Source of the DNA: an uncultured Bacteroidia bacterium
GTDB lineage: Bacteria > Bacteroidota > Bacteroidia > Bacteroidales > F082
Direction: 5' to 3'
NCBI GenBank assembly: GCA_913009755.1
Contig: CAJVWU010000001.1
Location: 60,494 to 124,493 of the forward strand
Length of the DNA stretch: 64,000 bases
In this document: positions 1 to 16,272 of the stretch, in pieces
Numbering within the stretch: the stretch's first letter is position 1
Layout: every line of letters begins with the position of its first letter
Notes under the pieces: generated by a model
Seen by the model: the letters and a program-made list of their open reading frames with translations, nothing else
What the model was told of the DNA's origin: nothing
Database searches by the model: none
Position numbers and translations under genes: made by a program

Positions 1-611
1 TCGAAAAAAGTAAAAAATCGCTTATCCTTTCCCAAACATTCAAATATTCTCAAAATGCCGATTACATTTCTTTGAACAAACAAAAAGAATTGACGCTGTT
101 ACAGGTTAATCTTGCAAAATCAGCATATATGCCAACCCTGGCGGCCAGAGTTAATTACCAAACGCAGGCTCAACGCAATTCCTGGGACTTTTTCAGTTCC
201 GAAGGCAAGTGGTATCAAAGTGGGGCGTTGGGCATTACACTGGACGTGCCGATACTTTCAAGCGGACAACGAAAAGCAAAAGTCAAACAGGCAAAAATTG
301 CTTTCGAACAGGTTGAGATCAGTGAAAAACAATTGGTAACCACACTCAACCTTCAATACCAAACAGCAAAAAATGAGTACCTGAACGCTTATCGTGTTTA
401 TCAAAACAAAGACAAAGCACGAAAAATAGCCGATAAGATTTTTACCAAGACCAGCGTGAAATTTAAAGAGGGCATGTCATCCAGTTTGGATATTTTAAAC
501 ACACAAACCCAATACCTGAAAGCGGAACAAGATTTTATTACGGCCTCACTCACCCTGCTGAAAGCCGGAGAAGACCTGAAAAAGCTATTGACCAATGCCA
601 TTAATCCCTGA
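1..611 (+). CDS. TolC-family outer-membrane efflux protein, C-terminal part (5' end outside window)
   Basis: Frame 3 is open from nt 3 to TGA 609-611. The tail (LNLQYQTAKNEYLNAYRVYQNK, LDILNTQTQYLKAEQDFITASL) looks like the OMF/TolC helical repeat. It sits upstream of the MFP and RND genes. Confidence 0.8.
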   Translation, partial: EKSKKSLILSQTFKYSQNADYISLNKQKELTLLQVNLAKSAYMPTLAARVNYQTQAQRNSWDFFSSEGKWYQSGALGITLDVPILSSGQRKAKVKQAKIAFEQVEISEKQLVTTLNLQYQTAKNEYLNAYRVYQNKDKARKIADKIFTKTSVKFKEGMSSSLDILNTQTQYLKAEQDFITASLTLLKAGEDLKKLLTNAINP

Positions 612-615
612 AACC

Positions 616-1227
616 ATGAATGAGAAACGAATAGAGATAATTGAAAAAGTCCGTGAGCTTTATGATAAATACGGTATCAGAAGCGTAACGATGGATGATG
701 TAGTTCACGAGATGGGCATTTCAAAAAAAACGCTGTATCAATATTTTTCCGATAAAACGGAATTGGTATCGGCCGTGATGGACAGTGCTTATGAAAAAAG
801 AAAAAATAGTATGATCAGTGCACTGGAAGGCAACGAAAATGCAGTTGAAGAAATGCTTACCTATTATGGCCTTCAGATGAAAATGATCAAAGACCATAAA
901 CCGACGGTGATTTATGACCTGAGAAAATATTATCCTGAGATTTATGCCAAAGTTACCGACAGAAAAAGAAACCACATCTACGAAAGTGTCCTTTTAAACC
1001 TGAAAAGGGGGAAAAAGGAAAGTTTATACAGGGATGACATTAACGAGGAAATTATTGCCCGGATGAACCTTATGCGTGTGGAAGCCATTATGTCATCGGG
1101 GATTTTCACACACGAAGAGATTATGGCCCCCGCATTTTTTAAGGAAATTTTTACCTATCACATGTATGGGATAGTCAATGATAAAGGAAGAAAAATATTA
1201 GAACAAAATCTTGATAAATTCATATAA
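616..1227 (+). CDS. TetR/AcrR-family transcriptional regulator
   Basis: N-terminal HTH GIRSVTMDDVVHEMGISKKTLYQYFSDKTELV. ATG 616 is preferred. ATG 595 would overlap the TolC stop. Confidence 0.85.
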   Translation: MNEKRIEIIEKVRELYDKYGIRSVTMDDVVHEMGISKKTLYQYFSDKTELVSAVMDSAYEKRKNSMISALEGNENAVEEMLTYYGLQMKMIKDHKPTVIYDLRKYYPEIYAKVTDRKRNHIYESVLLNLKRGKKESLYRDDINEEIIARMNLMRVEAIMSSGIFTHEEIMAPAFFKEIFTYHMYGIVNDKGRKILEQNLDKFI

Positions 1228-1228
1228 A

Positions 1229-2377
1229 ATGCTGAAAATCATGAAAAAACTTATTGTCTTGATCTTTATAAGTGTTTTACTGGCTTCTTGTGGCAATCAC
1301 GAAAACGATGCGGCGGCAATTAAAAAACAAATACGGGATTACCGGGAAGATATTGTTTCGCTCAACGATAAAATTGAAAAACTAAAGACAAAATTGGATG
1401 CTCTTGGCGACAGTAGCGATATGGCCAATGCCATTAAGGTAAGGGTTGAAAATGCTGCTGTAAAACCTTTTTCCGAATATTTTGAAGCCATTGGCGAAGT
1501 AGAGGCCAGGGATGAAGCATTCATCAGCCCGGAAGTTGCCGGACAGATTATCTCCATCTTTGTTAAAGAAGGACAAAAAGTAAAGAAAGGCCAACTGCTG
1601 GCCAAACTGGACACCAAAGTGATTGAAAAAAATATGGATGACGTGAAAACCCAGTTGGAATATGCAGAAACCCTATATAACAAACAAAAGCAACTTTGGG
1701 ACAAAAATATCGGTTCCGAACGGCAGTATCTGGACAGCAAAAATAAATATCAAACTCTGAAAAACAAACTGGCCACCCTTCAGGCCCAATACAATAGGTC
1801 GCTCATTCATTCACCCATTAACGGGTATGTGGAAGAATTGCTCCAGCAAAAAGGGGAACTGGCCACACCGGGCATACGGATGATGCATATTGTTGACCTT
1901 GATAAGTTGAAAGTTACGGCCATGATTTCAGAAGCCCACCTGCCCTCAATTCGCCCGGGTGAAATGGTTGATATCACTTTTCCCACTTTTCCCGGGATTA
2001 AATTCCACAAACCCATCACGCTTATTGGCAAGGTGGTAAACAAGCAAAACCGGACTTTTAAAATACAGGTTGAACTGGAAAACAGCGATGGAAAATTAAA
2101 ACCCAATTTGCTGGCAAACATCAGGATCAACAATTACAATTCCGACACCAACATTGTCATCCCTTCACTTGTGATCAGGGAAGACATGAAGGGATCGTAT
2201 CTTTATGTTGCCGAAAAAGAGGGCAACCACCGGGTGGCCAAAAAGAAATATCTTAAAGTCGGACGGTCTTACCGGAACAAAAGTGAAATCCTTTCGGGAT
2301 TAAACGTAGGCGACAAAGTGATTACTGACGGTTATAGCAATGTTTCGGACGGGACGATAATAAGTATTGCAGGATAA
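1229..2377 (+). CDS. RND efflux periplasmic adaptor subunit (MFP/HlyD family), lipoprotein
   Basis: Lipobox LLASC follows MKKLIVLIFISV (alternative start 1241). It has a coiled-coil segment plus a beta-barrel/lipoyl-like segment (GQLLAKLD, INGYV). It lies directly upstream of the RND pump. Confidence 0.9.
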   Translation: MLKIMKKLIVLIFISVLLASCGNHENDAAAIKKQIRDYREDIVSLNDKIEKLKTKLDALGDSSDMANAIKVRVENAAVKPFSEYFEAIGEVEARDEAFISPEVAGQIISIFVKEGQKVKKGQLLAKLDTKVIEKNMDDVKTQLEYAETLYNKQKQLWDKNIGSERQYLDSKNKYQTLKNKLATLQAQYNRSLIHSPINGYVEELLQQKGELATPGIRMMHIVDLDKLKVTAMISEAHLPSIRPGEMVDITFPTFPGIKFHKPITLIGKVVNKQNRTFKIQVELENSDGKLKPNLLANIRINNYNSDTNIVIPSLVIREDMKGSYLYVAEKEGNHRVAKKKYLKVGRSYRNKSEILSGLNVGDKVITDGYSNVSDGTIISIAG

Positions 2378-2430
2378 AAAAACACGTGCCAATCTCAACC
2401 CATTTACTTAAATAACTTTTGAAAAAGATC

Positions 2431-5400
2431 ATGGAAAACGAAAAGGATAAAAGCAAAAAAGTAATCAGGACCTTTTGGCTCTCCAACTGGGCTTTAAAAA
2501 ACAAAACCACCGTTTACCTTTTGTTGGTGGTAATAATTGCTTTTGGGCTATACTCTTATATCTCCCGCCCGAAAGAGCTGTTTCCCGAGATTAACTTTCC
2601 AACCGTCATGGTACAAACGGTTTATCCCGGAAACCCGCCTGTTGACATTGAAAACCTCATCACACGGCCCATCGAAAAGGAGGTGGAATCCCTAAAGGGA
2701 ATTAAAAAAATGACTTCCCTGTCGAGCCAGGATGTTTCCGGCATATTCATTGAGTTTCAACCCAACGTGGACATTAATAAAGCTTTGCAGGATGTAAAGG
2801 ATGCTGTGGACAAGGCGAAAAACGATTTGCCCGACGACCTGCGCGAAGACCCTTCGGTTACGGATATTGACCTTTCCGAATTCCCGGTTGTCAACATAAA
2901 CCTCAGCGGTGATTTTAACGTGAACGAACTGAAAGAATATGCCGAAGAACTGAAAGATGAAATCGAAACAATTTATGAAGTCTCCAAAGTAAACATTACC
3001 GGCATAACCGACCGCGAAGTGCGCATCAACCTGAACCCTTTTAAAATGAGCGCCCTCAAGGTGAGCTATACCGATGTTGAAAATGCCGTAAAACGCGAAA
3101 ATGTTTCCATGTCGGGCGGCGACATTAAAATGGGAAAAATCCGGCGTACCATCCGCCTTGTGGGTGAGTTTAAACACCCTTCCGAAATAGATAACATCAT
3201 CGTAAAAAGTGAAAAAGGAAACATCGTTTACATGAGGGACATCGGATCGGTGGAATTCGGCTTTGCTGATCGCGACAGTTATGCACGTTTGAATAATCAA
3301 CCGGTTGTTTCGTTGCAGGTTATTAAAAAAAGCGGAGAAAACCTGCTGTCAACCATTGCCCAGGTCAACAAAATCCTGAAGAAGGCGCAGAACGACAATA
3401 CGTTACCCGAAAAACTGGTGGTTACCATCACCAACGATCAGTCGAAAACCGTTAAGTTGCAACTCAGCAACCTGGAAAACAGCATCATCATGGGGATGAT
3501 CTTTGTCATCATCATCTTGTTCCTTTTCCTGGGAACACGAAACTCACTGATTGTTGGGCTTGCCATCCCCATGTCCATGTTCCTTTCGTTCCTGGTCATG
3601 GGGCTTCTGGGCTACAACATCAACATGATTGTTTTATTTGCCCTGATCCTTGCCCTGGGGATGCTGGTTGATAATGCCATCGTGGTAACGGAAAACATGT
3701 TCAGGTATGTCCAGCGGGGATATTCCAGGATGGAGGCTGCCCGGCAGGCTACCGGTGAAGTGGCTGTCCCCATCATTTCATCAACGGCCACCACCCTGGC
3801 TGCCTTTGTGCCGTTGTTGTTCTGGGACAGCACAATCGGTAAGTTTATGAGCTATCTGCCCGAAACCCTGATTATTGTGCTTACCTCATCCCTGGTGGTC
3901 GCCCTGGTTATTGTCCCGGTTGTGTTTAACGATTTTTATAAAAAAGGAGCCAATGTGGTATTACCCAAACGCAGAAAACATTTGATTGCAATCATCATTT
4001 TGGTATTGCTCGCCATGATATTCTTTGCATTGAAGGTTAACTGGATGGGAACCCTTCTTCTGGCTTTTGCATTCATCGGCCTGCTGGATTTGCTTTTCCT
4101 CTCGCGGCTGGCCTTATGGTTTCAGAAAGTTGGCCTGGTGTGGCTCGAAAATACCTACCTGAAGTTTGTCACTTTTGCCCTGAACGGAAAAAACCCTTAC
4201 TTGTTAATTGCAGGCACTTTTGTGCTGATGATTGTAACCATGGTTTTCTATTTTAACTCAAACCCCAACATCGTTTTCTTTCCCCAGCCTGACCCCAAAC
4301 TGATCAATATTGTTACCGAGATGCCTATCAATACCGATATTGATGTAACCGATTCGGCCATGAAAGTAATTGAGAAAAAAGTGTTTGTTGTCCTTAAACC
4401 CGATATGAAGATCGTTAATTCGGTACTGACCACGGTTGGAAAAGGTGCCGTTGGCGAAAATGCGGGTTTTGGCGGAAGGACAGGTGGATCAAACAAAGGG
4501 CTGATCACCATTAATTTTGTGGAATATGAGGACCGGGGGGGGATAAGCACCCGTAAAATCCAACATGATTTGGAAAAAAACTTTGTGGGACAGTATCCGG
4601 GCATCATCATTTCCGTTGAAGGACAAAAACACGGGCCACCCACCGGAAAACCCATCAACCTGGAAATTCACGGTAAAGATTTCAGGACCTTATTGTTTTT
4701 GTCCGATACCATCCGCTCGGTGATCAATGCTGCCGGAATACCGGGCATTGAAGCCCTGAAAATTGACCTGGATGTGGGCAAGCCCGAATTGCTGGTGAAC
4801 ATAAACCGGGAAAAAGCCAGGCGTTACGGCCTTTCCACAAGCCAGATTGGTGACGCTATACGAACGGCATTGTTCGGAAAAGAGATATCCGATTTTAAAC
4901 AAGGGGAAGACGAATATAAGATCAGGATGAAACTGGCAGACAAATACCGGTATAACCTGGAAGACCTTATCAACCAAAGGATTACCTTCAGGAGTCAGGC
5001 CAGCGGTAAAATCATCCAGGTGCCCATTTCGGCAGTGGCCGATTTTACATACAGTTCAACCTACGGGGCCATTAAACGGATTGACCGTGACCGGGTGGTT
5101 ACCATTTATTCAAATGTACTGGAAGGATATAACGCCAACAACATTAATGTTGAACTGAAAAAGATAATGGGACAATTTAAACTTCCGGCAGGTGTTACCT
5201 ACAAATTTACAGGCGAACAGCAAGACCAGCAGGAATCCATGTCTTTTCTTGAAACCGCCCTGCTGATTGCCGTTTCGCTGATTGCCCTTATTTTGGTCAC
5301 CCAGTTCAATTCGTTTGTCAAACCGGCCATGATCATCTTTACGGTAGTGCTGAGCACCATTGGTGTATTTGGCGGGCTGGCCACCTTTAAAATGGATTTC

Positions 5401-5871
5401 ATTGTGGTTATGACCGGAATAGGCATTGTATCGCTGGCCGGTGTTGTGGTGAACAATGGCATTGTACTGATTGATTATATCGGCCTTTTGAAACAACGAA
5501 AGCGTAAAGAACTTGGATTGCCCGATGGCGCCAATCTGCCAAAAGACATTGCCAAAGAATGTATTGTCGAAGGCGGCAAAACCCGCTTGCGCCCCGTATT
5601 ATTAACGGCTATCACTACTATCCTGGGGCTGTTTCCGCTGGCTGTCGGCCTGAACATTGACTTTGTTTCGTTCCTGAACACCTTCAACCCGAAAATTTAT
5701 TTCGGCGGCGACAATGTGGCTTTCTGGGGCCCGCTGAGCTGGACGGTGATTTTCGGACTGAGCTTCGCCACTTTCCTCACCTTGATTCTTGTACCGTCAA
5801 TGTATCATGTTTTGGTACTGGGGCAGACCAAAATGAAGAATGTCTTCAATAAAAATAAAACGGGAAAATAG
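2431..5871 (+). CDS. RND efflux transporter permease (AcrB/HAE1-like)
   Basis: About 1146 aa with a two-fold repeat of TM bundles and large periplasmic loops. Motifs ALGMLVDNAIVVTEN and GIVSLAGVVVNNGIVLIDY are present. ATG 2431 is preferred over TTG 2419. Confidence 0.95.
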   Translation: MENEKDKSKKVIRTFWLSNWALKNKTTVYLLLVVIIAFGLYSYISRPKELFPEINFPTVMVQTVYPGNPPVDIENLITRPIEKEVESLKGIKKMTSLSSQDVSGIFIEFQPNVDINKALQDVKDAVDKAKNDLPDDLREDPSVTDIDLSEFPVVNINLSGDFNVNELKEYAEELKDEIETIYEVSKVNITGITDREVRINLNPFKMSALKVSYTDVENAVKRENVSMSGGDIKMGKIRRTIRLVGEFKHPSEIDNIIVKSEKGNIVYMRDIGSVEFGFADRDSYARLNNQPVVSLQVIKKSGENLLSTIAQVNKILKKAQNDNTLPEKLVVTITNDQSKTVKLQLSNLENSIIMGMIFVIIILFLFLGTRNSLIVGLAIPMSMFLSFLVMGLLGYNINMIVLFALILALGMLVDNAIVVTENMFRYVQRGYSRMEAARQATGEVAVPIISSTATTLAAFVPLLFWDSTIGKFMSYLPETLIIVLTSSLVVALVIVPVVFNDFYKKGANVVLPKRRKHLIAIIILVLLAMIFFALKVNWMGTLLLAFAFIGLLDLLFLSRLALWFQKVGLVWLENTYLKFVTFALNGKNPYLLIAGTFVLMIVTMVFYFNSNPNIVFFPQPDPKLINIVTEMPINTDIDVTDSAMKVIEKKVFVVLKPDMKIVNSVLTTVGKGAVGENAGFGGRTGGSNKGLITINFVEYEDRGGISTRKIQHDLEKNFVGQYPGIIISVEGQKHGPPTGKPINLEIHGKDFRTLLFLSDTIRSVINAAGIPGIEALKIDLDVGKPELLVNINREKARRYGLSTSQIGDAIRTALFGKEISDFKQGEDEYKIRMKLADKYRYNLEDLINQRITFRSQASGKIIQVPISAVADFTYSSTYGAIKRIDRDRVVTIYSNVLEGYNANNINVELKKIMGQFKLPAGVTYKFTGEQQDQQESMSFLETALLIAVSLIALILVTQFNSFVKPAMIIFTVVLSTIGVFGGLATFKMDFIVVMTGIGIVSLAGVVVNNGIVLIDYIGLLKQRKRKELGLPDGANLPKDIAKECIVEGGKTRLRPVLLTAITTILGLFPLAVGLNIDFVSFLNTFNPKIYFGGDNVAFWGPLSWTVIFGLSFATFLTLILVPSMYHVLVLGQTKMKNVFNKNKTGK

Positions 5872-5976
5872 TGCGTGTTCTTGTCATGGTTATATCTGGG
5901 AATTTTTTTCTGAATAGTTGCCAATTAACGGGTACTTTTCTGTCTGGTGATGATAAATTTGTTTTGGACACAAATT

Positions 5977-6717
5977 TTAAAGATTAATTATCTCAGCCTC
6001 ATAATTAAAGTAGTCGGAAAGAGATTTCCCGGAAAAATTTGTCAGGCGTTTTGTTTGTTGAATTGTATAATGACTATGATTTATAAATTTTTCAGTTTCC
6101 TTAATTAATTGATCTAAAAAGTCTTGCGCCGGAAGTACTTTATTTATCAGACCCATCTCATAAGCTTCGTTTGCAGTAAAAGAATCCTTCATTAAAAACT
6201 CCATGGCCATCGAATGGTGAAGGGAATTGGAAAGAAAAAAAGGTAACCCACCGCTTGGATGCAACCTAAATTTATTATGGGCCATGATGTATATTGTGCC
6301 TTCCCGGGAATAGATTAAGTCTGCAACAAAAGCTATACCGACAAAGGGCGTTACAACTGAACCTTGTGTGCCTTAAACTACAATTATATTAAGGTTTACC
6401 AGGGATTTAATAAAGCGGTTCAGAATATTGATCTCCCGAAACCTGACATTTTTTTGATGAAAATCTGGTGTTACTGATTGATCCCCTTCCTTTGATTGAG
6501 CCATGATTCGTTTTAAAAATTTATCATAATTGTCCTCATTTACACAATCGGGATCATGGTAGAAAACGAGCGCTTTAATTTCAGTACTACTTGAAATATT
6601 TTCAAGAAAATTCATCAATTCGCCGCTTAACTCAACATCAGAAATAAAGTCAAAAACATTTTTTTTTAATTCTGACGATCGAAATTGCATCCTTTTTGGA
6701 TATTTCGAAAAATTCAT
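5977..6717 (-). pseudogene. Enoyl-CoA hydratase/isomerase (crotonase) family gene interrupted by one in-frame TAA
   Basis: ORFs 6373-6717 and 5977-6285 are in the same frame (6717-6285=432). Codon-by-codon reading shows the only interruption is TAA at 6373-6375 (..NLNIIVV*GTQGSVVTPFVGIAFVADLIYS..). The joined product of about 246 aa has crotonase length and a C-terminal ANEAYEMGLINKVLP segment. Confidence 0.7.
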
Positions 6718-6775
6718 TGTCGGTTAGTTTGTTCATGATTTTAGTTTTTTATACTATAAATAAATGATTTCTTTT

Positions 6776-8137
6776 TTAAAAACTATACTTTACTTTTAGG
6801 AACCCCATATCATAACCAATAAGGTTGTTAAACAAGTTATCGCCTTTTCCGGTAAAAACATAAGCCCCCAATTGAATTTCGGCATTATCAACAGGTTTGT
6901 ATATGATAGAAGGTGCCCAGATAACAGCATAATTGTTGCTGATGTCATTCCAGTCGGAAACAACAAATCCACCGGTCAGGGGTTCAATTTTCAATTTATC
7001 TTCAAAGAAAGTTTTGTTATACCCAAGCATGAAATAATCATTCTGGTTGCCCCTGCCCCGTTCATTGATGAATCCGTGCAAGTATTGAAAATTTATATAG
7101 GAACCGTCACGAAAAGTATAATCCATCCCTAGAACAAATTTGAGGTACAACTCATTATCAACGATAAGACTGTCCATTTCCGGGAGCGGTTGTCCGGCAA
7201 TGTCATTGGTCATTACGACCTTTCTGTCCGGTAAAAAACCGGCTGCCTCGCCCCATATACCCACACCACCAATACTACCTGCGAAATCGGCACCGAAAAT
7301 ACTTTGCCTGTAAAAACCAGTTGTTGCACGAACATTAACCCCTCCTTCAAGATTGACCGGGGTAATACTATTGTGCAAAGGTGCAGCCAACCCGTCAAAG
7401 CCGTAAACATAGCTTATTGAAAAGTCGAAACCACCAAGAAAGGCTTTAAAGCGCGCGCCTGTTGTAGCACTTTGTGTGAGGCCAAACACAGGCATGACTA
7501 AACTGTCGGATGCGGAAACAATATATGCAGGAGGTGGAAGTTGCATTTCCGGTGTAAGGGCAACAGCAAAAACGCCAATGGGCATGGTAGCGGGTTGAAA
7601 TAAGGGAATGTAAACTGCCTGTAATGAAAAATCACTGGAAAAATAGTAAATGGCATTAATACCTATTGACCCGTTATGTCGTCCAAAATCCATTATATCT
7701 TCAAGGTCATACGGGTTTAAATTATCGGTGGGATTTAGCTTATCGGCAGTTCCCCACGCAATACGTTGTTTTCCAATCTTTACATCCAGATTTTTACTGA
7801 GCAAGCCGTAAAATTCCACATAGGCTTCCCTGACAGAAAGATTATAAGGATCAACAATATCCTTGTTATAAAGTTCGGAGGCAGAAGCGATTTTTGGTAA
7901 ACCAAGATTCCTTAGCCAAACCTCTGTATAAAATTTTGCCCGGTTTTTAAATTTGGCCTCAAGTTTTAAGTTCAAGCGATTTTCATTCCATGCCCACAAC
8001 CCTTGATCCTTTAACAAAAAACGTTCATCTGTTAAAATATTGCCACTGAATTTTACTTTATTTTCCTGTGCTTTTACAGAGCCGGAAATCATGATAATCA
8101 GGAATATGAATACATAAATTATTTTTATTCGTTTCAT
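6776..8137 (-). CDS. Outer-membrane beta-barrel protein (DUF1302-like/porin-like, assignment from memory)
   Basis: Signal peptide MKRIKIIYVFIFLIIMISGSVKAQ. Alternating aromatic/polar strands throughout. It has GKQRIAWGTADKLNPTDNLNPYD and a C-terminal F (..LKVKYSF). Confidence 0.55.
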   Translation of the reverse strand: MKRIKIIYVFIFLIIMISGSVKAQENKVKFSGNILTDERFLLKDQGLWAWNENRLNLKLEAKFKNRAKFYTEVWLRNLGLPKIASASELYNKDIVDPYNLSVREAYVEFYGLLSKNLDVKIGKQRIAWGTADKLNPTDNLNPYDLEDIMDFGRHNGSIGINAIYYFSSDFSLQAVYIPLFQPATMPIGVFAVALTPEMQLPPPAYIVSASDSLVMPVFGLTQSATTGARFKAFLGGFDFSISYVYGFDGLAAPLHNSITPVNLEGGVNVRATTGFYRQSIFGADFAGSIGGVGIWGEAAGFLPDRKVVMTNDIAGQPLPEMDSLIVDNELYLKFVLGMDYTFRDGSYINFQYLHGFINERGRGNQNDYFMLGYNKTFFEDKLKIEPLTGGFVVSDWNDISNNYAVIWAPSIIYKPVDNAEIQLGAYVFTGKGDNLFNNLIGYDMGFLKVKYSF

Positions 8138-8141
8138 AGGA

Positions 8142-8828
8142 TTATTTTATTAAGATTAATTTTTTTAGCGATTTAACTATTAAATCAAAATTCTTTAACA
8201 CTGTTAAACTAATTTGATGACCTTCTTTTACAAACTCTGTCATAGCCTTAGATGTTGAGGTTTTGTTAAACTTTGTCGGGTGTTTTAGTCCGCTTAACAT
8301 GACATATTTTACTCTTTTGCCTTGTGATTGGTAATAAAGATTAATAAGTGTTTCAACTCCAAAACGTGACTTTTTCATTTTATCAACGAGCCGTAATACA
8401 TCTTTTTTCAATAATGCCCGTTCGCCTGTAAATGATTTAAATGGGTTTATGCTATAGTTGATCAATGTTTCGGTTGCCTGGCCAAGAACCATATCAGCTT
8501 CTTTATGTATAACCGGCATGAGTAATTCAAACAAGTGATCATCAATTAAGTTTGATAAATCAGCATCAATAAAAACAATGATATCACCCGTCGCATTTTC
8601 AATACCGGTTGCCATGGCAAAGCCTTTTCCTTTGTTTTTCTTCAGGTGAATTGCATTTATATCAATCGTTTGTTGTAACCTTTCTATAATACTGCTTGTT
8701 TGATCAAACGAACCATCATTCACAACAATCATTTCGTTAATCAACGGGTATTCAATGACTGCGCGGATCACATTTTCCAAAGTTTTTTCCTCATTAAATA
8801 CACATATAACCGCACTTACCTTTTTCAT
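8142..8828 (-). CDS. Family 2 glycosyltransferase (polyprenol-phosphate/lipid GT-like)
   Basis: VSAVICVFNEEKTL, VVNDGSFDQT and IVFIDADL (DxD) motifs. The small size of about 228 aa is typical of Dpm1/GtrB-like GT2 enzymes. Confidence 0.85.
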   Translation of the reverse strand: MKKVSAVICVFNEEKTLENVIRAVIEYPLINEMIVVNDGSFDQTSSIIERLQQTIDINAIHLKKNKGKGFAMATGIENATGDIIVFIDADLSNLIDDHLFELLMPVIHKEADMVLGQATETLINYSINPFKSFTGERALLKKDVLRLVDKMKKSRFGVETLINLYYQSQGKRVKYVMLSGLKHPTKFNKTSTSKAMTEFVKEGHQISLTVLKNFDLIVKSLKKLILIK

Positions 8829-9703
8829 TGAATTTCTTTGTTTTTATCAAACTTTTCTAAAAGTTCACGTGTAACAATCCTGCCTGTTTCAACAAGCTCT
8901 TTGGCCTTGTGGAAATCAAAAGTGCCGCAGGTTTGCCCGGATATATTAATGAGCAGATCGGGCGGGTTCATTTCAAGTGTCAGTTTTGATATTTGTGACA
9001 ACATCAGGCTTGTTGAAGTAACCATTAACTGAAAATAACCAATACTTTCCTTATTATTTACGGGAATAAGTTGTGCAAGTTTTTCCCGGAATATTTTTAA
9101 CCGGCCATTGGTTAAATGATCTTTATTTTCAATTTTTGTGCTTCTATGGACAGGGATTTGTGCATTCACATTGACAGCCACAAGCAAATCACCTTCTCTC
9201 CTCTTTACATGGTTCACCGGTACCGGGTTTAAAACACCACCATCAACAAAGTGCAGGCCTTCAATTTTGGTAGGTGTAATTACCAAGGGGATAGAAATAG
9301 ATGCCCTGATGGCTTCCCATAAACTCCCGGTTGAAAACACTTTTTCTTTTTTATTGCGGATATCAGTTGCTATCGCTGTAAAAGGTATGGGCAAGTCTTC
9401 AATTTTCTGATCGGGAATAAATGTCTTGATCTTTTTCAATACTTTGTCTGCTTTTATTATGCCACTTGTACTCAAAGTAAAGTCAACCAAATTAAATACA
9501 TCCATCCTGTCCAAAGCACACAACCATTCTTCATATTCGTCCAGTTTTCCTGAAGCATAAACCCCGCCAACCAATGCGCCCATTGACGAACCTGAAATGG
9601 AAGTAATCTCGTATCCATGACTAATAAGTTCACGGATCACCCCAATGTGCGCTGCTCCACGGGCTCCGCCACTTCCTAAAACAAGAGCTACTTTCTGTTT
9701 CAT
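8825..9703 (-). CDS. Patatin-like phospholipase
   Basis: Oxyanion box GSGGARGAAHIGV, nucleophile elbow GSSMG and catalytic Asp in VDGGVLNPVP. It overlaps the downstream GT2 start by 4 nt. Confidence 0.9.
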   Translation of the reverse strand: MKQKVALVLGSGGARGAAHIGVIRELISHGYEITSISGSSMGALVGGVYASGKLDEYEEWLCALDRMDVFNLVDFTLSTSGIIKADKVLKKIKTFIPDQKIEDLPIPFTAIATDIRNKKEKVFSTGSLWEAIRASISIPLVITPTKIEGLHFVDGGVLNPVPVNHVKRREGDLLVAVNVNAQIPVHRSTKIENKDHLTNGRLKIFREKLAQLIPVNNKESIGYFQLMVTSTSLMLSQISKLTLEMNPPDLLINISGQTCGTFDFHKAKELVETGRIVTRELLEKFDKNKEIQ

Positions 9704-9711
9704 TTTTCAAC

Positions 9712-10449
9712 TTACTGCATTAACTTTCTAACCGTAAAATCATCATCTGAAAGTCCCTGATCATAAACAACATCACTGACCACCATTTTTGTAACATGAT
9801 CCTTCTTCAAATCTTTCATTATTATTTCTTTTGAGGTCCAGTATTTTCCCACTTTTTCGAATTGATAAGTTGCTTCTTTGACGTTTTTTCCCACCTTATC
9901 AAAATATTCGGTAGTTACAGGATAAAAATTTTGTTTATTGATTTTCATCACCAGTTTTGAATAATCAGATTTCAATTCCGGCTTAGGAACTAACTTTAAC
10001 GTATAAGTTTCGTCATCCTGGCCAATCAGATCAGGATCATATTTTGAAGTGTACGGCTTGGCTTCCATATCATCATAAGAAAAATCTGTTCCTGCAAATT
10101 TCTGGTTCTTTACCGACGAGGCAATCCTCCTTTCTTTTCCAAAAGCAGGCATGTATAAATACATCACATCTTTGGGCAGCGATAAAAAAGCTATGCCTGC
10201 GTAAGATGCGGGACTTGTAAAACGAAACAACCGCATATTATTTCCTTTTTCCAAAACATCTGCGTTACGCGTACTTTCTTCTCCGTTCTTATCAATCAGA
10301 GTTATTGTGACCTTGTATTGTTGGTCTTTTGCCGAATACAAAACTTCATCGAGTTTTTGAAGGATTTCATTTGCATCTTGTGCTTTTGCACTAAATCCAA
10401 CTAAAAGGAATAATGCACTTACTAATACTGATAATTTTACTGTTCTCAT
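9712..10449 (-). CDS. LolA-like outer-membrane lipoprotein-sorting/carrier protein
   Basis: Signal peptide. RLFRFTSPASYAGIAFLSLP, MYLYMPAFGKERRIASSVKNQKFAGTDFSYDDME and LSDDDFTVRKL are typical of the LolA_like family that accompanies MMPL transporters. Confidence 0.75.
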   Translation of the reverse strand: MRTVKLSVLVSALFLLVGFSAKAQDANEILQKLDEVLYSAKDQQYKVTITLIDKNGEESTRNADVLEKGNNMRLFRFTSPASYAGIAFLSLPKDVMYLYMPAFGKERRIASSVKNQKFAGTDFSYDDMEAKPYTSKYDPDLIGQDDETYTLKLVPKPELKSDYSKLVMKINKQNFYPVTTEYFDKVGKNVKEATYQFEKVGKYWTSKEIIMKDLKKDHVTKMVVSDVVYDQGLSDDDFTVRKLMQ

Positions 10450-10466
10450 TTTACTTAAATTTTATG

Positions 10467-11297
10467 TTAATGATTTAATTTATATACTTGTTCTTTTACT
10501 TTTTGTGCCCACGCTCTATAGGTTAATGTATTATCAAAAGATTTATATGAAATTGGTTTTCCAATGGTGACTTTTATTGTTTTATTTCGTTTTTTATACA
10601 TTTCACGAGGCAAGAGTATCAACTCAAGAGTCGTTTTTATTCCGAATATTTGCCTGAATAAATAGATGCCATAAAACAGAATCGAATTTCTACCACTAAC
10701 CTTTATTGGTACAATGTCTCTTTTGTTTTCAATAGATTTTTTAACAAAGCTCTTTTTCCACTCTCCATCTTGAATTTTTCTTTTTTTAATTCTTGATACG
10801 ATACCGGCAGGGAAATTTGTAATAGGCAAATCGGACTCATAAACTTCTTTTAATTTTGCAATATGTTGTCTTGAATTTTTTTCAAAAACATTTACATAAA
10901 AAGTAATTGGATTTAAATTTTTAACATATTTCAAATAATCATTACTTATAATTCTTAAGTCACCATATTTTTTTCCTACTATTGAAAGTATAATTAAACC
11001 ATCAATCAAACCAAATGGATGATTGGAGACAAAAATGCAGTTTCCATTTATTGGTAAATTCGATTCTCCTGTAATATCAACTTTAACATTGAGGTACTCT
11101 AATACTTTAGGTGGAAAATCAACACCGACATAATCTGAATTATCGCAAAAAAGCTTATTAAGACTTTTTTGCCTTATAATTATGGCAATAGCTTTTATAA
11201 AGATATCCGGTAAGCTCTTCAAAAATTTTGAATCACTATTTTTAATGATAGGTGCAATATCTATAGTTTTCACACTATTTGCAATTTTGCTATTCAT
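10467..11297 (-). CDS. Lysophospholipid acyltransferase (LPLAT) family protein
   Basis: NHPFGLIDG box (a variant of the acyltransferase H..D box) and FPAGIVSR. Similar in size and motifs to OlsA/GlsA-type O-acyltransferases (from memory). Confidence 0.65.
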   Translation of the reverse strand: MNSKIANSVKTIDIAPIIKNSDSKFLKSLPDIFIKAIAIIIRQKSLNKLFCDNSDYVGVDFPPKVLEYLNVKVDITGESNLPINGNCIFVSNHPFGLIDGLIILSIVGKKYGDLRIISNDYLKYVKNLNPITFYVNVFEKNSRQHIAKLKEVYESDLPITNFPAGIVSRIKKRKIQDGEWKKSFVKKSIENKRDIVPIKVSGRNSILFYGIYLFRQIFGIKTTLELILLPREMYKKRNKTIKVTIGKPISYKSFDNTLTYRAWAQKVKEQVYKLNH

Positions 11298-11402
11298 AAC
11301 ATCAGAATTTATTTCTCTGTAATTAATTCATATATAATTATTTGCTCTTTTAAAAAATACTTTGTTTTTCTTTATTAAAAGTTAAATTATTGCCTAAACA
11401 TT

Positions 11403-13655
11403 TTATGGTTTTTCTTTTGCTTTGTTTGCAAGAATTAAGATTACGGGCAATAAGGTTAAAGCCCCGAGTCCTGAACCAACCATGCTAAGGGCAACTAACA
11501 AACCAAAATTTTGTATAGGAACGATATGTGAAAAAGTTAATACAAGAAAGCCCAATGACACTGAAATAATATTGATAATAATAGCCTTGCCGCTAATCAT
11601 AATACTGTCTTTTACTGATTCATCCATATTTTTAACTTCATCAAACTTTTTTGAAACATGAGTGATAATATGGATTGAGTAATCAATACCCATACCGAGG
11701 GCAACACTCGCCACGAGCACTGTTGCAATATCGAGTGCAATACCGCTAACTCCCATAAAGCCAAACAAAATAATAATGGTAGCTATAATGGGTATTGCCG
11801 CATATATTCCTTTTGAAAAAGAATGTAATATTAAAGCGACAATTAAAACCACTAATAAAATAGCTATTGTCAGGCTGCTGAATTGACTGCGGATTAAAGA
11901 ATTATTTAACTTTACATATACCGAAGGCATACCTGTTAAAGTTATTTGGCAGTCATTGGAAGAATTCTCTTTTATGAATTTATTCATATAGGTTACAAAA
12001 TCTTTCATGTCTTTACTGTCGGCAGAAGCAAACTTCGATTGTATTATTCCCTCATCAAGTTTTTTGGTAACCAGTTGGTCCATTACATCCTGACCGTCCA
12101 GCAAAAACCACAGGTTTTCAATTTTGGCTCTTTCATCCGGTATCTTCTTTCCTTCACCCATCACATCGTTCATCTCTTCTATTAAATCCGCCACCGATTG
12201 TGTGGTAGAAATGTCCGGGTATTTTTTCATATAATTTTCTGTTTTAACCATTTTTTTTAAAACATCCGGGCTCTGCATATCTCCCTTAAATACAACGAAA
12301 ACAGGTAATGAACCGCCAAATTCTTTCTGCATGATATCTTCCGTAACCCTGGTGGGATCATTTTTATGAAAATAGTCTGCCATATTAATGCTGGTTTTAA
12401 TATTAAATATCCCCCATATACTAATTGCCATCAAAACAATCCAGGCTACGGTAATATATTTTGGATGCTTTACAATAAGATTGGAAAAAGGGGTAAGTAA
12501 CATTTTACCCATAAAAGTATCTTCTGAACTTTTATGTTTCTTTAAAGCTTTTGTGGATTTATACATCGCAAATGCAGCGGTAACAGCGGGAGGAAATGTA
12601 ACGGAAATCAATAATGCAAATAATACCCCGAGAGAAGTAAAAATTCCAAAATCCCGGATCATGGTAAGGTATGCACCGAAAATAAATGACGCAAAACCGA
12701 ATACGGTAGTAATACCGGATAGAAATACAGGTATAATAATATAGGCTAAAGAAATTATTAATGCTTTCCGCCGGTCTTTTTCTTTACATTCGTTTATCCT
12801 GTTGATAACATGTATGGTATAAGCGCTGCCAACTGCAAGTAATATGACAGGCATATTGATTGAAACCAAATTTAATTGATAACCCAATAATTGCATAAGC
12901 CCCAAAACCCATACTATAGAAATACTTGCTGTTAAAAGAGGTAAAATAACACCACGGGCAGACCTGAAACTTATTAAAAGAACTAACATTATAACAACAA
13001 ATGCAATAGGCAATAAATTCCTCAAATCAACCAACATTAAGTTCGACACATCATTCATCATCATTGGTAAACCGCCAAAACTTATTTTTTCGGGAAGATT
13101 TAGTCTTGTGATTTTTTCTTTTACTTCTTTTGCCACTACTTGTTTATCAGCATTGTCAAGCAGGGTAAACATAACAAGGGTTGCCTTCCCATCAGCAGAA
13201 ACGATGGAACCTTTATACATATCTTTTGAAAAAACATAGTTCTTTAAACTATCTAATTTTTGTTGTGTATCGGGTAAGTCATATTCATCAACGAGTTTGC
13301 CTATTTCAATGCCGCCATCCACATTTTTTATATCAATAATATCAGTCAGGCTCGTAACTGTTGAGATTCCATCAATATATTTAATAGTATCCGTTATTTG
13401 TTTAATGTCTTCTAATACTTTGGTGGTAAAAATATTATCGGCTTGAATAATAACCATACCCATGGTATTCCCACCATATTTATTACCGATATTTGTATAT
13501 AATACCGCGGTTGAATCATCGTCAGGCAAGGAATTGATAACATCTGAATCAATTGTTAAATTTGGAAGCCGGTAACCAAAAAATACGGTTAATCCAACTA
13601 CCACCACTATTATAAACCATTTTAATTTTACTATTAGTTCTGCTAATTTGTTCAT
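11403..13655 (-). CDS. MMPL/RND-superfamily lipid exporter (12 TM, two periplasmic domains)
   Basis: 750 aa. Two repeats, each with one N-terminal TM, a soluble domain of about 170-200 aa and a 5-TM bundle. It has GMGIDYSIHI and GSAYTIHV motifs. Confidence 0.85.
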   Translation of the reverse strand: MNKLAELIVKLKWFIIVVVVGLTVFFGYRLPNLTIDSDVINSLPDDDSTAVLYTNIGNKYGGNTMGMVIIQADNIFTTKVLEDIKQITDTIKYIDGISTVTSLTDIIDIKNVDGGIEIGKLVDEYDLPDTQQKLDSLKNYVFSKDMYKGSIVSADGKATLVMFTLLDNADKQVVAKEVKEKITRLNLPEKISFGGLPMMMNDVSNLMLVDLRNLLPIAFVVIMLVLLISFRSARGVILPLLTASISIVWVLGLMQLLGYQLNLVSINMPVILLAVGSAYTIHVINRINECKEKDRRKALIISLAYIIIPVFLSGITTVFGFASFIFGAYLTMIRDFGIFTSLGVLFALLISVTFPPAVTAAFAMYKSTKALKKHKSSEDTFMGKMLLTPFSNLIVKHPKYITVAWIVLMAISIWGIFNIKTSINMADYFHKNDPTRVTEDIMQKEFGGSLPVFVVFKGDMQSPDVLKKMVKTENYMKKYPDISTTQSVADLIEEMNDVMGEGKKIPDERAKIENLWFLLDGQDVMDQLVTKKLDEGIIQSKFASADSKDMKDFVTYMNKFIKENSSNDCQITLTGMPSVYVKLNNSLIRSQFSSLTIAILLVVLIVALILHSFSKGIYAAIPIIATIIILFGFMGVSGIALDIATVLVASVALGMGIDYSIHIITHVSKKFDEVKNMDESVKDSIMISGKAIIINIISVSLGFLVLTFSHIVPIQNFGLLVALSMVGSGLGALTLLPVILILANKAKEKP

Positions 13656-13719
13656 ACTTAAATTTTATTTATCAATTTATACTTTTATTGTTTTATAGTC
13701 AGTTATTTTCAAATTTTTT

Positions 13720-14274
13720 TTAGCTATATCTCTTATCTAAAGTAAAATTCTCTGGGTACTTCCCATTTACATCTTTATACATTTCACATATTTTTGATAT
13801 TGTTTTTTTCATATCACTTGTTTCTCTAATAACCCCTTTAATTCCAATTTCTTTTTTTTTATAATCAATATAACCAACTATTATAGGTACATCTGCCTTA
13901 TTTGCCATATAGTAAAATCCTTTTTTCCAATGATCAGTTTTTGCAAGTTGTCCTTCAGGAGAAAGGACAATATGTAATCTTTCACTTTCTTTAAATAGTG
14001 CAACAATTTCATTTATATAATCTTTATTTCGTGAAACAGGAATGGAACCATATAACCTGAAAAAATACTTTAATGGGAATTTAAAGAATTCCTTTTTCGA
14101 TAAGAATTTATAAACTATATCAATTTGCATAAGTAATAGTTTCCCATAAAACGCATCCCAATAGCTTGTGTGCGGAGCAAATATGATAACAGATTTCTTA
14201 AAATTTGGGAAAAAACCCATTACTTTCCATCCTAAAACAGATGTAAGGATATATTTAGAAATCGTTTCCATCAC
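13720..14274 (-). CDS. PlsC-type 1-acyl-glycerol-3-phosphate/lysolipid acyltransferase
   Basis: H(X)4D box in FAPHTSYWD and PEG box in LSPEGQL. 184 aa. Confidence 0.75.
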   Translation of the reverse strand: MMETISKYILTSVLGWKVMGFFPNFKKSVIIFAPHTSYWDAFYGKLLLMQIDIVYKFLSKKEFFKFPLKYFFRLYGSIPVSRNKDYINEIVALFKESERLHIVLSPEGQLAKTDHWKKGFYYMANKADVPIIVGYIDYKKKEIGIKGVIRETSDMKKTISKICEMYKDVNGKYPENFTLDKRYS

Positions 14275-14322
14275 ATTATTACTTGAACTAATATCGTTTT
14301 ACAGCCTTTTAATGAAAATGAA

Positions 14323-14965
14323 TTATCTTTTTAAAACATAAAACATATACTCAAATTCTCGTGTCACAAACTTATTGTATGTCAGTGTCCCCTCTGTTGC
14401 AGCAAAATTTCTACCTAAATATTGTAGAAGCTTTGGCATCAATTTCTTTATTAATTCTAGTCTGTCCTGTGAGGTTAATTTTAAAGCTTCAACTACATTA
14501 GAGGTAATTATTTCCTCTTTAATTAATTGTAAATTTGATCTTTTCAATTGTGTGGTTAGTTTTTCAAGCTCAAGATTACTCCTAAAAGTTTAGATTTTGT
14601 GCATCTGCCTGCGAAAATTTAATTCTTTCATTTGCATAATATTTTTTACAAAATTCAATGGCTTTATTACTCAAATCAACCCCGGTTACTAAACCTGGTT
14701 CCAAATAGCGATTAATGTATGATAAACCACCACCACGTCCGCAACCTACTTCTAAAATATCTTTCCCTTTTATATCTATTCCAGTTGCAACCAAATGGTA
14801 AAGTTGTATTGAGTATCTGTTTTTTTCATCATTTTCATCAAGTTTGATCTTATGTTTATCATTCGAGTAACCATAGTTCATGAAAATTACTTGTGCATTT
14901 CTATCAATTGTACTCAGATACCAGTACCAAATTCTGAAAAGGAAATTCTTTAGTTTATCTACCAT
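14323..14965 (-). pseudogene. Class I SAM methyltransferase (phthiotriol/PDIM-methyltransferase-like) with internal deletion and frame change
   Basis: N-terminal part 14582-14965 carries motif I (ILEVGCGRGGG) and ends ..FSQADAQNLNF*. The C-terminal part (frame open from 14589 down to 14323) is in another frame (14965-14547=418). Only about 35 nt separate the two parts, where about 45 codons (post-I to motif III) are expected. Confidence 0.7.
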
Positions 14966-14982
14966 AGTTTATAAAAACTAAT

Positions 14983-15534
14983 TTATTTAGTCCCTTCAAA
15001 AATAAATACGGGTGGTACATTTAGCAATGTGGCATTTAGGCTTGATTTTGAGAATCTTTCTTTGATCAGATGATAAATTAACAAGGAATACTGATAAGTA
15101 ATAAATTTCCCATTTTCTTTGAGTAAGGAATAAGACCTGAAAATGATCCTTCTCCTTTTTTTTCTGTCGAGAAAAGTAAACGGTATCGTTGAGATAATAT
15201 AATCTACTCTTTCAATTTTATATCGGTTTTTTAAAATCATTTTTGCTTCTTCAGCATCCGCATTAATTAAGATTAACCGTTTATCATTGATTTTAATCAA
15301 TTCATTAATAAAACTTTCATTGGTTTCAAATGCAAAAAGAACAGTGTCTTCACTCATTAGGTTGAGAAGTTGCTTTGTGATTACACCTTTACCCGGTCCA
15401 TATTCAACAAATACTTTTGCTTTTTCAAAGTCAATCTTATTTATAAAATCTTTTACAACATATTTTGAGGTGGATACTATCGCTCCAACATTTTTATCTT
15501 TTATCAGTTCTTTTATCAATATCATTTCTTTCAT
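14983..15534 (-). CDS. Small class I SAM methyltransferase, phospholipid N-methyltransferase (PmtA/COG3963)-like
   Basis: VFVEYGPGKGVITKQLL (motif I) and YIISTIPF. Length of 183 aa fits the family. Confidence 0.65.
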   Translation of the reverse strand: MKEMILIKELIKDKNVGAIVSTSKYVVKDFINKIDFEKAKVFVEYGPGKGVITKQLLNLMSEDTVLFAFETNESFINELIKINDKRLILINADAEEAKMILKNRYKIERVDYIISTIPFTFLDRKKRRRIIFRSYSLLKENGKFITYQYSLLIYHLIKERFSKSSLNATLLNVPPVFIFEGTK

Positions 15535-15583
15535 AATAATTTTGTACTTAAAGTGTTTTATAGTCGGTAATACGTAAAAAAAA

Positions 15584-16168
15584 TTATTTGCCTAAACCTT
15601 TTATTAAAATTCTTAATAAATCATCAAAATGCGGACTTAGGTCATCATATTTACCCTGTAAAAAAAATGGTATTTCAAGTCCTTTTAACACCATAATGAA
15701 CACATCAAGCAAAACCTCCATATTACCATTTTGAATCCTAAAAATGTCTTCGTCAATGCCCTGAAGTATAATACTTTTAAGTTGTTCTTTTTCCCAATTA
15801 TCCAAATCGTTTCTTAAACTGTCAATAAAATCAAAATGCTCAAAAAAGTCTGCTTTCAGCGTTTCATGATAATTGGCAGCAGAATCCAAAACTTCCATTC
15901 GTTTTATCAGGTACCTTTTAATTTTTTCATCTGCTTTCAATGTATTGTCATTGACAATGACAGATAATTGAGTTTTTAAATTATTAATTTCTTTTGCTAC
16001 AACTTCTGTGAACAGTTCCTCTTTACCGGCAAAGTGATAATACAACGAACCTTTGGCTTTTCTTGCTATTTTAGCAATCTCATCCATTGATGTTTTATAA
16101 AATCCGTAACGGCCAAATAGCCTGGAAGCTACAGTTATAATTTTATTTTTTGTATCATCAACTGCCAT
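15584..16168 (-). CDS. TetR/AcrR-family transcriptional regulator (first gene of the island)
   Basis: HTH segment GFYKTSMDEIAKIARKAKGSLYYHFAGKEELF. Confidence 0.85.
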   Translation of the reverse strand: MAVDDTKNKIITVASRLFGRYGFYKTSMDEIAKIARKAKGSLYYHFAGKEELFTEVVAKEINNLKTQLSVIVNDNTLKADEKIKRYLIKRMEVLDSAANYHETLKADFFEHFDFIDSLRNDLDNWEKEQLKSIILQGIDEDIFRIQNGNMEVLLDVFIMVLKGLEIPFFLQGKYDDLSPHFDDLLRILIKGLGK

Positions 16169-16222: not shown

Positions 16223-16272
16223 TTTTTTTAAAATGTCAAAATTTATTAACGGATTTTAACATTTTAAAAAAA
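16223..16272. promoter_or_regulatory. 50-bp AT-rich palindrome, candidate TetR operator
   Basis: Arms 16223-16242 (tttttttaaaatgtcaaaat) and 16253-16272 (attttaacattttaaaaaaa) are reverse complements at 19/20 positions, with a 10-nt spacer. It lies 55 nt upstream of the TetR start at 16168. Confidence 0.4.

Follow-up and report, generated by a model that had tools for sequence, protein, structure and literature searches.

A candidate trans-envelope lipid export cassette, with lipid enzymes interleaved among its pump, carrier and barrel genes, in an uncultured Bacteroidia bacterium

How Gram-negative bacteria route lipids other than lipopolysaccharide and phospholipids, such as aminolipids, glycolipids and pigments, to the outer membrane is largely unexplained. 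A gene island in an uncultured Bacteroidia bacterium (order Bacteroidales, F082; assembly GCA_913009755.1, contig CAJVWU010000001.1, positions 60,494 to 124,493) raises the question of whether one such route is encoded there. Within these 64,000 nucleotides, here termed the window and numbered from their first letter, a sequence-only reading had picked out three proteins, one for each envelope compartment, and proposed that together they convey a lipid from the inner to the outer membrane. The three open reading frames are present, all on the minus strand, and the compartment and family given to each were borne out by the analysis described here:

11403..13655, minus strand: MMPL/HAE3-type RND inner-membrane transporter, 750 aa (PF03176, TIGR00921)
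9712..10449, minus strand: secreted PF17131 LolA-like ('LolA3'-type) periplasmic carrier, 245 aa (Pfam, fold)
6776..8137, minus strand: DUF1302-related outer-membrane β-barrel, the last transport gene, 453 aa (structure model, profile homology)

The putative pump matches Pfam MMPL (PF03176) with 164.9 bits (E 2.9e-48, cutoff 20.5). Its best NCBIfam model is HAE3 (TIGR00921; 294.9 bits, E 1e-87), a score under that model's cutoff of 351.9, and its closest sequence matches in the PDB are MmpL4 and MmpL5. Its sequence contains 12 hydrophobic segments, with large periplasmic loops at residues 26-213 and 420-591, in keeping with a 1+5 / 1+5 arrangement of transmembrane helices. Transmembrane helix 10 contains the sequence GMGIDYSIH (residues 654-662), kept as G(I/M)GIDYSIH in all 52 orthologs examined; helix 4 reads AVGSAYTIH (residues 274-282), with SAY and no Asp, and the same holds for all 52 orthologs. 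A proton-relay Asp may be present in one half of the transporter only.

The carrier is assigned to PF17131 with 168.2 bits (cutoff 30). Its N-terminus, MRTVKLSVLVSALFLLVGFSAKA/QD, has a hydrophobic segment followed by SAKA/QD; inspection of the sequence revealed no cysteine anywhere in the protein. As judged from these two features, which fit a type I signal peptide with no lipobox, the carrier is secreted and soluble, and is not a lipoprotein. The AlphaFold2 model (predicted local distance difference test score, pLDDT, 89.2) superposes on the 3bk5, 4z48 and 9tp6 structures with template-modelling (TM) scores of 0.82-0.85 and a root-mean-square deviation of about 2 Å (Foldseek), and comparison across 3bk5, 3buu, 9tp6 and 4z48 gave a range of 0.76-0.86. 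The 4z48 entry is deposited as a DUF1329-family protein and 9tp6 as 'LolA3 from Porphyromonas gingivalis'. The score to 9tp6 is 0.83-0.85, and the modelled fold of the window carrier is that of the crystallised LolA3-PG, whose structure has a hydrophobic groove. Canonical LolA identity was considered and rejected: the NCBIfam models LolA3_fam (32.9 bits against a cutoff of 83) and LolA1_Flavo (23.2 against 100) match the signal-peptide region only, and Foldseek TM scores to LolA are 0.4-0.6.

The 453-aa protein begins with a hydrophobic segment ending SVKA/QE, and terminates in LKVKYSF, a C-terminal aromatic β-signal. An AlphaFold2 model built from a 70-sequence alignment is nearly all β (pLDDT 93.4, predicted TM score 0.87), and the protein models confidently as an outer-membrane β-barrel. 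DSSP assigns about 22 strand segments of at least seven residues, a count that does not separate broken or non-barrel strands; the count published for the DUF1302 family is 16-18. Foldseek returns outer-membrane porins (probability 1.0) at TM scores of only 0.45/0.56, which indicates that there is no close solved relative; likewise, no sequence relative of the barrel was found in the PDB. Against Pfam DUF1302 (PF06980) the window barrel scores 23.0 bits, just below the gathering score of 23.2 and over residues 100-147 only (21.3 bits in a six-frame search); most of its close homologs carry a precomputed PF06980 match. Residues 122-139 of the barrel, GKQRIAWGTADKLNPTDN, form a nearly invariant non-strand loop (GRQRIxWG...NPxD), which is common to the more distant barrels discussed below, namely those linked to ATP-binding cassette (ABC) transporters and the P. 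gingivalis protein PG1178.

Do the three genes belong together? The barrel family is large, with more than 1,300 homologs among the matches listed, and a search from a 13-sequence alignment found close barrel relatives in at least 524 species-level genomes. Synteny was assessed at the 57 barrel-homolog loci whose sequence extends 4.5 kb or more upstream. MMPL and LolA-like genes lie within 6.5 kb upstream of the barrel gene and on the same strand at 51 of the 57 loci; at a further five they stand further upstream, behind larger enzyme inserts, which brings the same-strand total to 56. The single locus with neither gene is L035. A survey of 301 genomes from the phylum tells the same story. Barrel family and LolA-like carrier occur together in 84 genomes, the barrel alone in two, the carrier alone in 18 and neither in 197 (Fisher p = 1e-53, a value not corrected for phylogeny). 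These barrel counts (86/301 genomes, against 102/301 for the carrier, with matches spanning 51-60 genera) come from a profile search; a search with a single sequence found only 12/301 genomes and missed the paralogs in this genome. A barrel-family gene lies within 8 kb of 75 of the 129 carrier genes, always on the same strand and in 74 cases downstream.

Next, the distance matrices of the components were compared at 52 loci by a mirror-tree approach. Barrel and carrier are strongly correlated (r = 0.85, partial r = 0.79), whereas every pair involving the MMPL protein or the co-operonic TetR control shows r = 0.34-0.47 and a partial r of at most 0.19. Since the partial correlations of the MMPL and TetR pairs are low, the barrel and carrier co-evolve specifically, as a physical contact between carrier and acceptor would produce, without proving one. 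By three independent comparative tests (synteny, presence or absence, and mirror-tree), the association of the three genes exceeds chance, as the sequence-only reading had anticipated, and it is very probable that MMPL, carrier and barrel act together as one unit.

The same reading had likened the triad to the DUF1302/DUF1329/RND gene sets of Proteobacteria, and here too it was correct: by profile and fold comparison, the window triad is truly homologous to those sets, as a distant relative, and has the architecture of the P. gingivalis operon PG1178-PG1181. The PG1178 protein is a bona fide DUF1302 member (38.3 bits against 23.2 on PF06980), and aligns with the window barrel family over 379 columns (hhalign 99.6%, E 1.5e-24; BLASTP E 4e-15). 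The PG1179 product exceeds the cutoffs of both PF17131 and DUF1329. Gene order and strand are alike in the two operons (TetR, MMPL, PF17131 carrier, barrel), with enzyme inserts in the window copy. The window cassette is, by contrast, a paralogous subfamily at 21-25% identity, and another cassette of this genome, on contig C71, is closer to PG1178-81 (carrier 39% identity). The oral operons of P. gingivalis and Prevotella intermedia also differ in having two added ABC exporter genes and no lipid enzymes.

The P. gingivalis operon in turn gives a genomic context to LolA3. A metagenomic contig of P. gingivalis type (L101) is 100% identical to the 9tp6 segment and, across positions 4542-13482, seven of the eight published quantitative reverse-transcription PCR primers for PG1178-PG1181 map exactly; the reverse primer of PG1179 is without an exact match. 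Because the primer sites lie in operon order, TetR (PG1181), MMPL (PG1180), LolA3 (PG1179) and PG1178, on a contig identical to 9tp6, the crystallised LolA3 (9tp6, PGN0947) is, by sequence, the PG1179 product, with the MMPL gene PG1180 on one side and PG1178, which encodes the DUF1302 barrel, on the other. The neighbours of the gene are not mentioned in two LolA3 papers, that on the crystal structure included (PMC13103446). The crystal structure of LolA3-PG (2.3 Å) shows a 13-strand sheet and a hydrophobic groove; the protein does not bind LolB, and 'a separate function' was proposed (PMC13103446). The PG1178-81 genes form one transcription unit, whose expression is reported to rise 13- to 136-fold when iron is depleted and 84-fold on exposure to nitric oxide; heme limitation induces it as well. 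Three Prevotella operons resembling PG1178-81 respond alike, and stress induction overall ranges from 13- to >200-fold. Induction by iron or heme limitation and nitric oxide is a feature described for the oral operons.

Among the proteobacterial relatives, AmeABCD of Castellaniella defragrans and the DUF1302/DUF1329/BNR/COG1033-RND cassettes of Shewanella, Pseudomonas and Kangiella share with the window a DUF1302-type barrel, a LolA-superfamily periplasmic protein and an HAE3-type RND protein, and have neither a membrane fusion protein (MFP) nor TolC. The window carrier model fits the DUF1329-family structure 4z48 with a TM score of 0.83-0.85. The differences are that the window operon lacks a gene for the BNR/Ycf48-like propeller (AmeC), that its carrier is a 245-aa PF17131 protein rather than a DUF1329 protein of roughly 450 aa, that its barrel has 453 aa against about 600 and lies just under the Pfam cutoff, and that a TetR regulator and in-operon lipid enzymes are features of the window. 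Without AmeABCD, deletion strains tolerate monoterpenes less well and accumulate more Nile Red (PMC6394551). The DUF1302, DUF1329, BNR and RND genes of Proteobacteria are cofit (bioRxiv 10.1101/072470), and an AlphaFold-Multimer model of a DUF1302-DUF1329 pair reached an interface predicted TM score of 0.84 (PMC13499233).

Pfam searches of the operon's open reading frames (5977-16168) returned no match to the BNR family, and the homologous loci contain none either. All of these reading frames were assigned to other families with the exception of a 114-aa frame at 6373-6717 (no Pfam match), which is probably the N-terminal piece of a broken crotonase, and no unassigned frame is long enough to encode a propeller the size of AmeC (316 aa).

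The cassette also resembles LolCDE-LolA-LolB in outline: an inner-membrane extractor passes acylated cargo to a soluble LolA-fold carrier and on to an outer-membrane acceptor, a sequence of events that would apply here by inference. Moreover, ABC-driven sister cassettes, described below, use FtsX/MacB-type permeases. The window system differs in that its carrier resembles LolA in structure only distantly (TM 0.4-0.6), its acceptor is an integral barrel and not the lipoprotein LolB, its motor is an RND protein and its cargo is probably no lipoprotein. The hopanoid transporter HpnN, the sterol system BstABC and the mycobacterial MmpL exporters of lipids and siderophores are likewise RND/MMPL pumps that move a cell's own lipids outward, with other periplasmic and outer-membrane partners. 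Identity of the window MMPL with HpnN or BstA was rejected on NCBIfam scores (101 against a cutoff of 752, and 58 against 1400, respectively). An aryl-polyene or flexirubin export module (LolA2/LolB2) was also set aside: the operon lacks ketosynthase, acyl carrier protein and dehydratase genes, and the carrier belongs to another LolA family.

What distinguishes the window cassette is the company that the three genes keep. The remaining features of the island, from the upstream end, are as follows:

16223..16272, no strand: AT-rich palindrome and candidate operator, with 20-nt arms (95% complementary) and a 10-nt spacer, 55 nt upstream of the TetR start
15584..16168, minus strand: TetR-family regulator, first gene of the operon (PF00440, 55 bits)
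14983..15534, minus strand: small S-adenosylmethionine (SAM)-dependent methyltransferase, OlsG/PmtA lipid N-methyltransferase-like (NCBIfam OlsG 60.7 and PmtA 48.8 bits, both under cutoff)
14326..14965, minus strand: Mtf2/PDIM-type O-methyltransferase pseudogene with its middle deleted (two-piece match to a Petrimonas enzyme)
13720..14274, minus strand: 184-aa PlsC-type acyltransferase (PF01553, 41.4 bits)
10467..11297, minus strand: GlsA-like lyso-aminolipid O-acyltransferase, second paralog of the genome (NF053697 GlsA, 274.9 bits against a cutoff of 260)
8825..9703, minus strand: patatin-like phospholipase (RssA-like) with no signal peptide (PF01734, 113 bits; NF007623, 182.5 bits, under its cutoff of 272)
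8142..8828, minus strand: small soluble family-2 glycosyltransferase (GT2; PF00535, 93 bits)
5977..6717, minus strand: enoyl-CoA hydratase (crotonase, ECH_1), a probable pseudogene split into 114-aa and 102-aa reading frames

The sequence-only reading had held that the three transport proteins were the only non-enzymatic ones in the island; this does not stand, as the TetR regulator is a fourth. The TetR gene leads the cassette in most homologous loci, including that of P. gingivalis (PG1181). Gaps between the island genes are mostly 4-105 nt, with one 4-nt overlap, and the single larger gap, 307 nt at 14275-14581, contains the remnant of the Mtf2-type methyltransferase. Given these short intergenic gaps and the synteny, the window cassette is best read as one operon. 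Scans for sigma-70 promoters and terminators gave counts equal to those in shuffled sequence, and are uninformative for the operon boundaries.

None of the five interleaved enzymes (methyltransferase, PlsC-type acyltransferase, GlsA-like enzyme, patatin and GT2) has a signal peptide. An ortholog of the OlsG/PmtA-like methyltransferase is present in locus L002. At 21 of the 57 homolog loci, an ortholog of the PlsC-type enzyme (44-70% identity) is encoded no more than 7.5 kb upstream of the barrel, and a GT2 gene lies immediately upstream of the barrel in most enzyme-loaded loci. The GlsA-like gene is predicted to encode a lyso-aminolipid acyltransferase, being a divergent paralog that passes the cutoff of NF053697, the model for the lyso-glycine-lipid O-acyltransferase GlsA; the stronger, housekeeping copy on contig C6 scores 334 bits and is 36% identical to it. 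Inserts of this type are found in 6/85 loci compared (5/84 retrieved loci and the window). Two genes of the island are broken. The Mtf2-type pseudogene aligns with residues 18-145 and 187-273 of the intact Petrimonas enzyme, about 41 middle residues being gone, and its 127-aa reading frame ends after the SAM motif. In the crotonase gene, ECH_1 matches only the C-terminal piece; intact ECH_1 genes (248-252 aa) flank the cassette in L001 and L003.

The GC content of the island (0.29-0.38 across window positions 6000-16000) is below that of the genome (0.42), and neither the carrier family nor an orthologous barrel was found in any of seven same-order genomes sampled. Taken together, these data suggest that the island was probably acquired horizontally. 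A classical efflux operon of TetR, HlyD-type MFP and AcrB-type RND genes adjoins the island on the plus strand (595-5871); the cassette itself has no MFP and no TolC.

Does the interleaving with lipid enzymes point to a dedicated cargo rather than general efflux, as had been proposed? The interleaving is real and old. Across the loaded loci, where an acyltransferase, a patatin and a GT2 form the commonest enzyme load among relatives, the enzymes are orthologous and syntenic, as diverged as the barrel, and co-diverge with it (r = 0.33-0.45). On this evidence an old partnership with repeated loss fits better than repeated insertion. The stronger part of the proposal fares less well. The bare arrangement TetR-MMPL-LolA-barrel is found in 28 of the 57 orthologous loci, including that of the nearest relative, L001 (barrel 81% identical), which has no enzymes, and the loaded or core state has changed at least 10-12 times on the barrel tree. 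Because the transporter persists without enzymes in cis, the case for a dedicated cargo is weaker than proposed; comparative analysis instead suggests that the enzymes are a real hint at the cargo and yet dispensable in cis.

The richest enzyme-loaded cassette is that of a cultured, non-pathogenic strain:

NZ_JBPEHI010000023.1:14799-36172 (locus L031): Petrimonas sulfuriphila DSM 16547

The interval between its carrier and barrel genes encodes a ketoacyl synthase III (KAS III), a full-length Mtf2/PDIM-type O-methyltransferase, a 373-aa GNAT-like protein, a short-chain dehydrogenase/reductase (SDR), a small acyltransferase, a patatin, a GlsA-like enzyme and two GT2 proteins. Judged by their families, these enzymes could plausibly make a lipid of N-acylated, acyloxyacyl, methylated or glycosylated type. 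Paralogs of the Petrimonas GNAT-like protein (41-49% identity) are encoded in the present genome at C1:44189-45283, at C1:127866-128966 (just outside the window) and at C7:49479-50639; these could be N-acyltransferases that give a lyso-lipid substrate to the island's GlsA-like enzyme. A PF13444 N-acyltransferase candidate is present on contig C54 of the same genome. In a 2026 review of these acyloxyacyl aminolipids, no transporter is named that would carry them to the outer membrane or vesicles.

Three further cassettes built on the carrier family lie in this genome outside the window, and show that the components occur in other combinations:

C71:4070-9679: barrel, NAD-epimerase, MMPL and carrier
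C88:3106-13929: three radical-SAM genes, a 398-aa GNAT-like protein, MMPL, carrier and a 756-aa membrane patatin, with no barrel
C80:7572-14996: TetR, carrier, three FtsX/MacB permeases, ABC ATPase and barrel

Across the phylum, 102 of 112 barrel-family matches adjoin a LolA-like gene, an MMPL gene or both, and their neighbours divide as follows:

carrier and MMPL: 21
carrier only: 57
MMPL only: 24
neither detected: 10

The C80 architecture, with a MacB/FtsX-type ABC extractor, was observed in all ten 'carrier only' loci sampled, and the ABC-linked barrels are homologous to the window family (hhalign 99.9%, E 5e-32). RND/MMPL and MacB/LolCDE-type proteins are outward extractors. Since the pair of barrel and carrier works with two motor types that both extract outward, export would be favoured over uptake, and this constitutes the main argument for direction.

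Bringing these observations together, the cassette may be read as a TetR-controlled trans-envelope export route for an amphiphilic, acyl-chain-bearing molecule. In such a scheme the TetR protein would control the single operon, perhaps via the palindrome at 16223-16272. Acting in the cytoplasm, the operon's two acyltransferases, patatin, GT2 and methyltransferase would make or tailor a membrane lipid at the inner membrane, from which the MMPL/HAE3 pump, driven by the proton gradient, would pull it into its periplasmic domains. The soluble LolA-like carrier would then shield the acyl chains in a putative hydrophobic groove and cross the periplasm, and would finally dock on the DUF1302-type barrel, which would insert the cargo into the outer membrane or release it outside. 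The family, fold, linkage and barrel-carrier co-evolution of the components, and their homology to the AmeABCD and PG1178-81 cassettes, are observed; transport, its direction and its cargo are inferred for all Bacteroidota members. The scheme as a whole leads the readings considered and is, in our judgement, about as likely as not. Outward transport of a lipid-like amphiphile is somewhat better placed, and is probable on balance. The most likely cargo here is perhaps an acylated aminolipid or glycolipid; an aminolipid in particular is a tentative suggestion.

Several observations weigh against this export scheme. Half of the orthologous loci, that of the nearest relative among them, are free of enzymes and the loaded state has changed at least ten times, which suggests a transporter independent of enzymes in cis. 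An inducible efflux system would be an equally good fit for a cassette headed by TetR and for the stress response of PG1178-81. Mutants of the DUF1302/DUF1329 genes of Pseudomonas putida are impaired on fatty esters, which was interpreted as a catabolic role, and the decay of two operon genes may mean that the pathway is partly defunct in this organism.

The alternatives may be set against the same body of evidence. If the cassette were instead a broad efflux system under TetR induction, ridding the cell of hydrophobic or amphiphilic toxins such as free fatty acids, lysolipids, bile-like detergents or terpenes, its mode of action would be that of AmeABCD, which acts as a tolerance and efflux system, and no self-made cargo would be needed; the neighbouring enzymes would then repair or remodel the membrane when that stress occurs, with patatin and acyltransferase as a possible deacylation and reacylation pair. 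The many bare loci, L001 included, and the stress-induced oral operons are in keeping with this. It sits poorly, however, with enzymes that stand in fixed order between the transport genes and have co-diverged with them, and with the full lipid-building set of the richest loci (KAS III, GNAT-like protein, SDR, two acyltransferases, methyltransferase and two GT2). A soluble open-groove carrier is also better suited to acyl chains than to small solvents, and a classical TetR-MFP-AcrB pump already adjoins the island. General efflux is accordingly a serious reading, and still a rather unlikely one. Decay of a horizontally acquired island to the point of non-function in this genome would account for the low GC content, the two pseudogenes and the absence of carrier and orthologous barrel from same-order genomes, but the three transport genes, the TetR gene and five enzyme genes are intact, full-length and align end-to-end with their homologs, making such decay highly improbable.

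Two further readings reassign the direction or the cargo, and both appear very unlikely. Were the cassette to import hydrophobic nutrients, for example alkanes, fatty esters or long-chain lipids, the barrel would be an entry pore and the LolA-like protein a shuttle to the inner membrane. The P. putida mutants, which are impaired on Tween 20 as well as fatty esters, point this way, as does a Thalassolituus MMPL-LolA fusion that is induced together with a neighbouring porin on C28 alkane, and a patatin could cleave imported esters. The operon patatin has no signal peptide, however, and besides the broken crotonase there are no β-oxidation genes in the operon; by general knowledge, moreover, both motors that pair with barrel and carrier extract outward. 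Alternatively, the carrier could move lipoproteins from pump to barrel, with the barrel replacing LolB or exposing them at the surface. The database name of the carrier ('outer membrane lipoprotein-sorting protein') suggests as much, and the ABC-driven version, with its FtsX/MacB permeases, ATPase and LolA-like protein, mirrors LolCDE-LolA. Against this, LolA3-PG lacks the hallmark LolA arginine, there is no LolB leucine, and LolB is not bound (PMC13103446). Deletion of lolA3 in F. johnsoniae gives no gliding or type IX secretion phenotype, the LolA1 and LolA3 NCBIfam models match only the signal-peptide region of the window carrier, only about one genome in three of the phylum encodes the carrier family, and the operon partners are lipid enzymes, not lipoproteins.

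The export of an amphiphilic lipid can also be extended beyond the window. As a speculation that we consider improbable in its full form, the PF17131 'LolA3' carrier and DUF1302-type barrel would constitute a general Lol-like delivery path for lipids, not lipoproteins, with MMPL or MacB-type ABC motors interchangeable. The enzyme-loaded Bacteroidales cassettes, that of the window included, would then be the first exporters dedicated to acyloxyacyl aminolipids, delivering to vesicles or the outer membrane lipids of the glycine-lipid or ornithine-lipid kind that may carry methyl or sugar groups.

As a gene set the cassette has already been described from P. gingivalis, Prevotella and Proteobacteria, where it is poorly understood. 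To this are added here an enzyme-loaded Bacteroidales variant without the BNR component, a quantified core of co-evolving barrel and carrier, and a tie between the LolA3 crystal structure and the PG1178-81 operon. The cassette is common, given the breadth of its close barrel relatives and the share of sampled phylum genomes that carry the carrier family; in P. gingivalis it is among that pathogen's most strongly induced operons under iron or heme limitation and nitric oxide stress, and one of its components, LolA3, has been crystallised without an assigned function. The contact between barrel and carrier, as predicted by their specific co-evolution, would be the first to probe. The enzyme-loaded variants are the best handle on the cargo, and the occurrence of one in the cultured P. 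sulfuriphila DSM 16547 makes it practical for genetics and lipidomics.

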